Shown here in pieces: positions 31,701-34,700 of a stretch of 64,000 bases of DNA (its first letter is position 1; the number at the start of each line of letters is the position of its first letter). Position numbers: made by a program. Source of the DNA: Escherichia coli (GTDB lineage: Bacteria; Pseudomonadota; Gammaproteobacteria; Enterobacterales; Enterobacteriaceae); the NCBI RefSeq assembly GCF_003991155.1, contig NZ_CP031293.1; one strand, written 5' to 3'.

Positions 31701-34700
31701 GTGAATGAAATGGCAGTAAATATTATCTCTATGAATTAATAAGGCGCTGTGAAGGATAGGGGCAAGCGCAAAATTGCCAGATGCGCTACGCTTATCTGGC
31801 CTGCGCGGTCATTGCAACATATTGAATATAAATGTTTTGTAGGTTTGATAAGGCGTTTACGCCGCATCCGACATGAACAACACGCACTTAGCTAATTATC
31901 AGAGGCACCTCGTAAGGTGCCTTTTTTTAACCGAAGCGAACATCTCGTCCATGCGGTTCATCGAGATCCTGCCACGGACCAATTGAAATAATCCCCGTAG
32001 GGTTGATGGTCTTATGGCTGCGGAAGTAATGATTACGGATGTGATCGAAATTGACTGTTTCGGCAATTCCCGGCATCTGGTAGATATCGCGCAGGAAGCC
32101 ATACAGATTCAGGTAATCGCTGATGCGGTGCTTATCACACTTGAAGTGGGTCACATACACTGGATCAAAACGCACCAGCGTGGTCCACAGGCGAATATCG
32201 GCTTCGGTTAGCTGGTTGCCGGTCAGGTAACGGTGCTGACCTAAAATCTGTTCCAGTCGCGCCAGCGATTCAAACACTTTCGCCACCGCTTCGTCGTAGG
32301 CTTGCTGGCTGGTGGCAAAACCGGCTTTATACACGCCATTGTTAACGGTGTCGTAAATCCAGCCGTTAAGTTCGTCAATTTTCGGTTGCAGAGCTGGTGG
32401 GTAGTAATCTCCCGCTTTCGCACCCAGCGCATCAAACGCGGTATTGAACATGCGGATGATTTCTGCTGATTCGTTGCTGACGATGGTGTGGTTCTTTTTG
32501 TCCCACAGTACGGGAACAGTAACTCGTCCGCTGTAGTGTGGATCGGCGTGGAGATAAAGCTGATACAGAAATTCATGTTGATAGAGCGTGTCGCCGGTTG
32601 CTCCCGGAAAACTGTCATCAAAGGTCCAGCCGTTTTCCAGCATCAGCGGGTTCACTACGGAAACGGAAATAAACGGTTCCAGTCCTTTGAGTTTACGCAT
32701 GATCAGCGTGCGGTGCGCCCACGGGCAGGCGAGTGAAACATAGAGATGATAACGATCTTTCTCTGCGATAAAACCGCCTTTGCCAGTGGGGCCTGGTGCG
32801 CCATCGGCAGTGAGCCAGTTACGAAATGCGGAAGCTGAACGTTGAAATTTACCGCCGGTAGATTTGGTATCGTACCAGGTGTCATGCCAGACGCCGTCAA
32901 TCAGTTGACCCATTTTTCTCTCCTCCAATAGCAAAAACGAGGAGCGTTTCTCCTCGTTTGAGACTGATGGCAAACGCAAAACTGCCTGATGCGCTATGCT
33001 TATCAGGCCTACGAGGTTTCTGCAATGTATTGAATTTGCATGTTTTTGTAGGCCGGATAAGGCGTTCACGCCGCATCCGGCATGAACAACGCGCACTTTG
33101 TCAACAATCTGAAACGAGGAGTGTTCCTCCTCGTTTTTTATCGTTAAGTATAGCGCGTGCTTACCACTTTTTATTCAGCAGGCGGTCGATGCTATACGCG
33201 CCCGGACCGGTAATTGCCAGCAGCAGGAATCCGCCAGAAATTGTCAGGTTTTTCATGAACATCAGCGAGTTGACGCCTTCAGCAAAGTTGCTGTGAAATA
33301 AAAATGCCGTCAGCAGCGTAAAGCCCGCAGTAAACAGGGCTGTGGTACGTGTCAGGAAACCGAACAGGATTGCCAGACCACCACCAAACTCAAGCAGAAT
33401 CACCAGCGGCAGCATAAAGCCGGGGACGCCCATTGCTTCCATATATTGTTGGGTACCCGCGTAGCCAGTAATTTTTCCCCAGCCTGCGGTAATAAACAGA
33501 ATCGGCATTAAAATACGCGCTACCAGTACACCAACATCTTCTAATTTTTTCATCATACTCTCCACTGCGCCGCTCAGGCTGCTGATTGTTTTTTTGTGCA
33601 AGGGCGCGGTATTTGCGTCATTGCTGTCGATGGAGAGAATCATAAACGTGGCGAAGCGTGATTGTTAGCAAGGAAAACTGTCAAAAATCTTCAAAAAATT
33701 TGAGGGATATGGCCGGAATGGCTCCGGCCAGAGAGGTTATTAACCGCGAAGTTGTTGCTGCTTGAGGGTTGTTTTCACCAGACGCCAGGCGCTCCATACA
33801 CCAAAACCGCGTCTGGCCCAGCGGACCAGCATATTAGGATGGCGAATCGTCCAGATAGCCATCACGCTACTGCCAACCAGCGCCCAGGAGCGCAGACTCA
33901 ACAGCATATTCCAGCGACGATCGTAAGCGCCTGTTGCCTCCAGCCATTCACGACGAGTGGCGGAAAGATCCAGCCGTTGTTGCTGGATCTGGCTAAGCAG
34001 TTGCGCCTTACGTCGTTCACGTTCGACTTTACTGCTCACGGGACTCCTCCTCGAGCAGCTGCCGATCGTTTGCCAGCTCATGGCGTGTATGGCGCAGCAA
34101 GGTGGATTTACGCGATTTACGTAACGTCCAGATACCGCCAATCAGTGCCAGTAGCAGCAACACCACGGTGGTGGCAATCATCGCATTCAGGCGATATTGC
34201 GGATCAACCGCCCAAATAATTAGCACCATCAGGCTCATAAGACCAAATGCAGCGAAAAGCATCGTCAGGCCCAGCATCAGTAAAAGTTGAAAGAGATTCG
34301 CTTTTTCCTCTTCCAGCTCCACCACCGCCAGCCGCAGACGTGTTTCCACCATTTCAACCATGATGGAAACAATTCGCTGCCCGATGCCCAGAACGCTTTT
34401 ACCGGGCCCTTGCGCGTGATGAGTGTCCGCCATAATTAACGACGCGACAGCAGAACGCCGAGCACTACACCGATTGCAGCGCCAATGCCCACGCCGGTCC
34501 ACGGATTTTCACGCACATACTCATCGGCACGCGCCGCCGCGACACGGGTTTGTTTGGCGATGGCATCACCGGTTTCACCCAGGCGATAACGGCTCTGTTT
34601 CAGTGCCTGCTCCGCTTTGCTACGAATCTTACTCAACTCTTCTTTCGACTTCTCGCCAGATGAGCTAAGCACCTCTTCCAGCGTATCGGAAAGGGATTTC

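Follow-up and report, generated by a model that had tools for sequence, protein, structure and literature searches.

Translational coupling of overlapping genes is textbook biology. According to the review by Brown and Wade, spacings of -4, -1 and -8 are enriched among spatially coupled open reading frames (ORFs), and coupling is most efficient when the spacing is short (PMC12548453). The yqjCDEK operon of Escherichia coli, which is under RpoS and CsrA control (PMC10746276), codes for YqjD, a hibernation factor that binds ribosomes and is anchored in the membrane, and for YqjE and YqjK, both without known function (PMC10746276; bioRxiv 10.1101/2024.08.16.608256). Here we analyze the start of yqjK and its junction with yqjE in a stretch of 64,000 nucleotides (nt) from the E. 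coli contig NZ_CP031293.1 (assembly GCF_003991155.1). We refer to this whole stretch as the window and use its positions throughout. The window is chromosomal, and its minus strand carries yqjC, yqjD, yqjE, yqjK and yqjF, arranged as b3097-b3101 are in K-12. The features at the center of the analysis are as follows.

33740-34039, minus strand: yqjK coding sequence (CDS), 300 nt, 99 amino acids (aa) plus TAA stop; ORF translation and RefSeq CDS WP_000096093.1 give identical coordinates
34037-34039, minus strand: GTG start codon of yqjK; only GTG, ATG or TTG is found at the aligned codon in 81 species
34029-34039, minus strand: yqjE/yqjK overlap of 11 nt, read from the sequence; the yqjE stop TAA is at 34031-34029
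34029-34433, minus strand: yqjE CDS, 134 aa, ATG start; Phage_holin_3_6 family PF07332
34044-34052, minus strand: Shine-Dalgarno (SD) sequence GAGGAGGAG, encoding Glu-Glu-Glu in the tail of YqjE, with a spacer of 4-6 nt to the GTG downstream

A preliminary description of the window had proposed that yqjK initiates at a GTG within the 3' end of yqjE and shares the last 11 nt of that gene. The annotation, the comparison of 81 species, the strength of the SD sequence and the E. coli population data all agree with this start, and the overlap is exactly 11 nt long. From these lines of evidence we consider it almost certain that the GTG at 34039-34037 is the yqjK start. The finding is already known: the GTG start is the existing public annotation, and the observation restates it.

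On the minus strand, the junction reads ...CTC GAG GAG GAG TCC CGT GAG CAG TAA in the yqjE frame and GTG AGC AGT AAA GTC... in the yqjK frame. A 1,201-base query (window 33600-34800) was matched in 5422 of 5426 complete E. coli genomes and was 100% identical to several non-K-12 strains. For a strain that is 100% identical over this query, the RefSeq annotation by the Prokaryotic Genome Annotation Pipeline (PGAP) has the identical 300-nt yqjK CDS with the 11-nt overlap (WP_000096093.1). The identical 300-nt CDS and the identical overlap are likewise annotated for yqjK of K-12 MG1655 (b3100, NP_417571.1, 3250077-3250376). The exact 99-aa YqjK sequence is present on at least 1000 contigs in a collection of 15 billion proteins.

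The yqjK start across Enterobacteriaceae

The comparison set of 81 loci consisted of K-12 and 80 other Enterobacteriaceae species, each represented by a single genome, and YqjK and YqjE were mapped in them by tblastn. All 81 loci have a yqjK start codon, located at the aligned codon in 67 cases and one codon to either side in 14. GTG is used in 50 species, ATG in 28 and TTG in three, while bases 2 and 3 of the codon are invariant; E. albertii, for one, has ATG at the position of the E. coli GTG. That GTG, ATG and TTG replace one another at one site while the second and third bases never change points to a genuine initiation codon.

Sequences upstream of the start do not look like a part of yqjK. 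An in-frame stop occurs 0-6 nt 5' of the start in 52 of the 81 loci, and an upstream in-frame alternative start is absent in 64. Relative to the yqjE frame, yqjK is in phase 2 in 60 loci and in phase 1 in 21. Since the phase varies across genera, an upstream extension cannot be homologous. The column entropy over the 78 nt upstream of the start is 0.52/0.24/1.32 bits at codon positions 1/2/3 of the yqjE frame, and after the start it is 0.88/0.78/1.40 bits at codon positions 1/2/3 of the yqjK frame. Thus, by this measure the 81 loci show no sign of dual coding upstream of the yqjK start, as the variation there follows the yqjE frame alone.

The ribosome-binding site (RBS) is equally informative. 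The 18 nt preceding the GTG can form a duplex of -11.8 kcal/mol with the 3' end of 16S rRNA, and of 9,141 windows sampled on the minus strand only 0.04% attain this value. Over the 81 species the mean duplex energy before the yqjK start is -9.0 kcal/mol. The preliminary description had named conservation of the GTG and of an SD-like sequence upstream as a check. A start codon is kept in 81 of 81 species, as GTG in 50 of them, and upstream of it GAGG is present in 73 and GGA in 80.

YqjK itself matches the YqjK-like family PF13997 with 87.5 bits (cut-off 28.1, E=8e-25). The match covers the full length of the profile, positions 1-73 of 73, and corresponds to residues 14-86 of the 99-aa protein. 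YqjE matches PF07332 with 75.8 bits (cut-off 28.4), from which we do not claim holin activity. NCBIfam has no model for either YqjK or YqjE. The genomic context is that of the PF13997 family, with yqjK directly 3' of the Phage_holin_3_6 gene yqjE and near a DUF883 gene, and this order is kept in the 81 species as well as in plasmid paralogues.

It might be argued that yqjK is not translated at all and represents a spurious or decaying ORF. YqjK has no known function and protein-level detection was not found, which would fit such a view. Nevertheless, the ORF is intact in 81 species, its variation is biased towards third codon positions (see the entropy values above), the Pfam match is full-length and paralogues are kept on plasmids. 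Moreover, the synteny with yqjE and the DUF883 gene extends well beyond Enterobacteriaceae (bioRxiv 10.1101/2024.08.16.608256). We find an untranslated yqjK hardly conceivable.

A search of the reachable literature for experiments that map the yqjK start directly found none, and yqjK is not listed in the supplements of the INRI-seq, Salmonella riboproteogenomics and acid-stress ribosome profiling (Ribo-seq) studies. The TRAINSPOTTER N-terminomics supplement (PMC13245402) lists the N-termini of YqjD and YqjE, including the K-12 YqjE N-terminal peptide MADTHHAQGPGKSVLGIGQR, but not that of YqjK. The absence from N-terminomics probably says little, because the YqjK N-terminus (MSSK/VER/ER/R/K) gives only very short tryptic peptides. 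The N-terminal peptide expected from the GTG start is (f)MSSKVERERRKAQLLSQIQQQRL.

Upstream start candidates and allelic variation in E. coli

In the window, the yqjK frame remains open for some distance upstream of the GTG, and three features of this region are relevant.

34079-34081, minus strand: rejected start, ATG 42 nt upstream of the GTG, with a 113-aa product; the only upstream in-frame ATG
34139-34141, minus strand: rejected start, TTG of the 133-aa maximal ORF, SD energy -1.5 kcal/mol
34073-34076, minus strand: polymorphic site identified by alignment, CTG in the window and TTA in K-12 (changes at 34076 and 34074), both Leu in yqjE

The preliminary description had attributed a 133-aa product to an upstream ATG, which has to be corrected: the 133-aa ORF opens at the TTG at 34141, and the ATG at 34081 would give 113 aa. 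Both candidates were rejected on the basis of SD strength, the in-frame stops in relatives, the phase differences and the entropy pattern. The SD-antiSD energies are +1.4 kcal/mol for the ATG (-42) and -1.5 kcal/mol for the TTG (-102).

The state of the upstream frame differs among E. coli strains. The change of the yqjE Leu codon from CTG (window) to TTA (K-12) makes the yqjK-frame TGG into TAG, so that in K-12 the upstream ATG is followed by AGT TAG, with the TAG 33 nt 5' of the GTG. When 60-nt queries were run against the 5422 E. coli genomes, the exact window haplotype (frame open) was found in 2223 and the exact K-12 haplotype (frame closed) in 1185. Where one and the same species freely tolerates both the open and the closed state, the stretch is not coding in the yqjK frame. 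The same synonymous yqjE polymorphism explains the occasional 113-aa annotations. The 15-billion-protein collection has the 113-aa form on four contigs, from older annotations such as that of E. coli M605, and the 133-aa form is absent from it. The extra 34 residues of the 133-aa ORF had no match in the Pfam profile search.

Could strains with the window haplotype also, or instead, start yqjK at the ATG (113 aa) or at the TTG (133 aa), and thereby make an N-terminally extended proteoform? Their frame is indeed open as far as 34141, the open haplotype is common in the species as counted above, and a few records do annotate the 113-aa form. Yet neither codon has an SD sequence, a TAG closes the frame in K-12 and in 1185 genomes, and in most genera a stop lies within 6 nt of the yqjK start. 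In addition, variation in the upstream sequence is of the kind given by yqjE coding alone, the extension is without a family match and the 133-aa form has never been called. Extended proteoforms are therefore very unlikely in our judgment.

The value of these results lies mainly in annotation hygiene. The curated 99-aa GTG start is right. A synonymous yqjE polymorphism gives rise to the 133-aa maximal ORF and to the 113-aa calls of a few E. coli records, neither of which is real.

The yqjE-yqjK junction and initiation of yqjK

The two genes overlap in 76 of the 81 loci and are separated by a 2-nt gap in the other five. The most frequent overlap is 4 nt (42 loci; GTGA or ATGA), followed by 1 nt (13 loci; TAATG), 8 nt (12 loci) and 11 nt (eight loci), and a single locus has an overlap of 32 nt. 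The 11-nt class includes six Escherichia loci (E. coli, E. albertii and unnamed Escherichia species), Citrobacter sedlakii and C. amalonaticus. Among more distant junctions, that of Klebsiella has a 4-nt overlap and that of Proteus mirabilis a 17-nt overlap. In the plasmid paralogues, which are 31-39% identical, the overlap is 4 nt (E. coli IncF plasmid) or 8 nt (Serratia IncI1 plasmid).

In the window, yqjE and yqjK have several properties expected of a coupled pair: they are co-directional, belong to one operon, overlap by 11 nt and form a tight junction that is kept among relatives. A scan for sigma-70-like promoters inside yqjE found none. Judging from the sequence, translational coupling of the two genes is plausible, and on balance we lean towards it.

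The explanation that we favor is the following. The yqjK gene is the last cistron of the stationary-phase operon yqjC-yqjD-yqjE-yqjK, and initiation at the GTG gives YqjK as a 99-aa membrane protein. Its RBS, GAGGAGGAG with a 4-6 nt spacer, is made of Glu codons in the C-terminal tail of YqjE, which accounts for the yqjK start lying 11 nt inside yqjE. Whereas the comparison of species shows the start site, the mechanism that follows is inferred. Ribosomes translating yqjE probably aid initiation of yqjK in two ways, which may act side by side. First, they may melt a local hairpin, formed by GCUGCUCG and UGAGCAGU, that buries the UG of the GUG. Second, the UAA at which they terminate lies 8 nt past the GUG, and from there a ribosome held by SD-antiSD contact may move back by about 5 nt to reach the GUG (termination-reinitiation). 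At the moment of termination the GUG should be within the mRNA channel of the ribosome, with the SD sequence a further 4-6 nt upstream. The likely purpose would be to keep the synthesis of YqjE and YqjK matched; both are small proteins of the inner membrane, and they are always encoded as a pair beside YqjD. As a whole, this explanation (the GTG start, and probable yqjE-dependent initiation of the last yqjCDEK cistron) seems to us very likely.

The simplest alternative accepts the GTG start and considers initiation to be independent, with free 30S subunits binding the strong SD sequence and the overlap reflecting genome compaction only. A number of observations side with it and weigh against coupling. 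The SD sequence before yqjK, at -11.8 kcal/mol, is strong enough for independent 30S binding. The RBS costs less to unfold over the 81 species than control windows of the same genes do (13.1 versus 16.8 kcal/mol; Wilcoxon p = 2e-11). This is expected of a real start site, and at the same time it argues against RNA unfolding as a general mechanism. Lineages differ freely in the length of the overlap, the extremes being a 2-nt gap and 32 nt. Finally, PMC10746276 cites a global mapping in which transcription is predicted to begin upstream of yqjE and also upstream of yqjK, and some transcripts may therefore not carry yqjE in full. Against the independent mode stands the tight junction, which all 81 species, the plasmid paralogues and Proteus share, with spacings of the kind at which coupling is most efficient (PMC12548453). 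Furthermore, ribosomes elongating on yqjE necessarily cross the yqjK start site. Taken together, we view independent initiation as rather unlikely, although it deserves more weight than the other alternatives considered here.

In the minimum free energy (MFE) fold of the E. coli sequence, a hairpin pairs GCUGCUCG with UGAGCAGU, placing the start codon in the stem with the UG of the GUG buried. This hairpin is not significant in comparison with shuffled sequences (z = -1.49), a further point against the favored explanation. A conserved structure sequestering the RBS seems improbable as a general explanation and was rejected as such, both on this account and because the RBS is more open than the controls across species. 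Only the lineage with the 11-nt overlap has a more structured RBS, with an unfolding cost of 17.5 versus about 12.5 kcal/mol, a comparison based on eight loci that are not phylogenetically independent. This higher cost and the position of the start codon in the E. coli stem are points on the side of coupling. RNA unfolding may thus be a lineage-specific contribution at most.

The tail of yqjE has itself changed. Relative to Salmonella and Enterobacter, there is a net 1-nt frame change in Escherichia, C. sedlakii and C. amalonaticus, and YqjE ends in ...LLEEESREQ with the 11-nt overlap as opposed to ...LLEDD(QS/KP) with GTGA. In evolution, the end of yqjE is labile, whereas the yqjK start remains fixed. 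A more far-reaching scenario would be that Escherichia moved from the ancestral-looking GTGA (-4) to the 11-nt overlap by way of this net 1-nt frame change, that the triple-GAG SD sequence and the start-burying hairpin arose from it, and that yqjK then became strictly dependent on yqjE ribosomes unfolding the RNA and backing up by ~5 nt, unlike in Salmonella and Enterobacter. In a weaker variant, E. coli strains whose upstream frame is open (~41% of the genomes) would make a minor 113-aa proteoform. We consider this scenario improbable.

The preceding junction of the operon is also tight.

34436-34741, minus strand: yqjD CDS, 101 aa, DUF883; membrane-anchored, ribosome-associated protein
34433-34438, minus strand: yqjD-yqjE junction TAA-TT-ATG, a 2-nt gap with no SD sequence (+0.6 kcal/mol)

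The gap between yqjD and yqjE is 1-2 nt in all 81 species. Such a tight junction lacking an SD sequence is typical of termination-reinitiation and suggests that yqjE relies on it after yqjD. A translationally linked yqjD-yqjE-yqjK string is accordingly a reasonable, if provisional, picture. The conserved tight junctions of yqjD-yqjE-yqjK lend support to the notion that YqjE and YqjK are synthesized in fixed proportion alongside YqjD, and this may be taken as a modest hint that the three proteins act together.

Flanking sequence, plasmid paralogues and known systems

Downstream of yqjK, the operon probably ends at a hairpin.

33706-33729, minus strand: hairpin GGCCGGAGCCATTCCGGCC after the yqjK stop, identified in the sequence; likely 3' end of the yqjCDEK transcript

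In published Term-seq data (PMC7815308 supplement), a primary 3' end maps to K-12 3250409, which is 33 nt past the yqjK stop and 5 nt past the hairpin, whose sequence GGCCGGAGCCATTCCGGCC corresponds to window 33711-33729. Another 3' end in the same data set is internal to yqjD, at K-12 3249405, 30 nt from the beginning of the gene. A simple terminator scan did not call the hairpin because its T-run is displaced. Farther along, the yqjF-yqjG interval (33040-33137) contains a sequence resembling repetitive extragenic palindromic (REP) elements, followed on the plus strand by an 11-bp hairpin with a T-run (33111-33137). There is no plus-strand gene upstream of this hairpin, which may be a bidirectional terminator for yqjF.

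Conjugative and mobilizable plasmids carry a divergent cassette coding for a DUF883 protein, a hypothetical protein, a holin-like protein and a YqjK-like protein, the latter 31-39% identical to chromosomal YqjK. The cassette occupies positions 1346-2794 of the fetched locus of the E. coli IncF plasmid NZ_CP031323.1, where it directly precedes the genes for colicin Ia and its immunity protein, and positions 1999-2791 of the Serratia IncI1 plasmid locus. Some database labels encountered in the analysis deserve caution. CACSKA010000008.1, labeled as Chryseobacterium sp. 18061, has an enterobacterial yqjK locus whose junction is one base off that of Citrobacter sp. 18056 over 64 nt, which indicates a labeling problem. 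Several 4-5 Mb 'plasmid' records in PLSDB are evidently chromosomes.

We finally compared the locus with three known systems. The closest is K-12 yqjK as described in RefSeq and EcoCyc, which shares the GTG start, the 11-nt overlap and the 99-aa length with the window, the proteins being 97% identical. The difference lies upstream: in K-12 the TAG at 33 nt leaves the GTG as the sole possible start, whereas the window strain has the CTG allele and a frame open up to the TTG 102 nt upstream. The plasmid cassettes (IncF pEsST2350_SE_2 and Serratia IncI1) share the order of the holin-like and YqjK-like genes and have junction overlaps of 4 and 8 nt. They differ in having an extra hypothetical gene between the DUF883 and holin-like genes, in a weaker SD sequence (-5 to -6.5 kcal/mol) and in adjoining colicin Ia genes. 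Like spatially coupled ORFs in general (PMC12548453), yqjE and yqjK belong to a single operon and point the same way, and the downstream gene starts at the upstream stop or just 5' of it. The orthologous junctions of other genera are of the classical -4 (42 loci), -1 (13) and -8 (12) forms. The Escherichia junction is unlike these classical forms in that it combines the rarer -11 spacing with a strong SD sequence.

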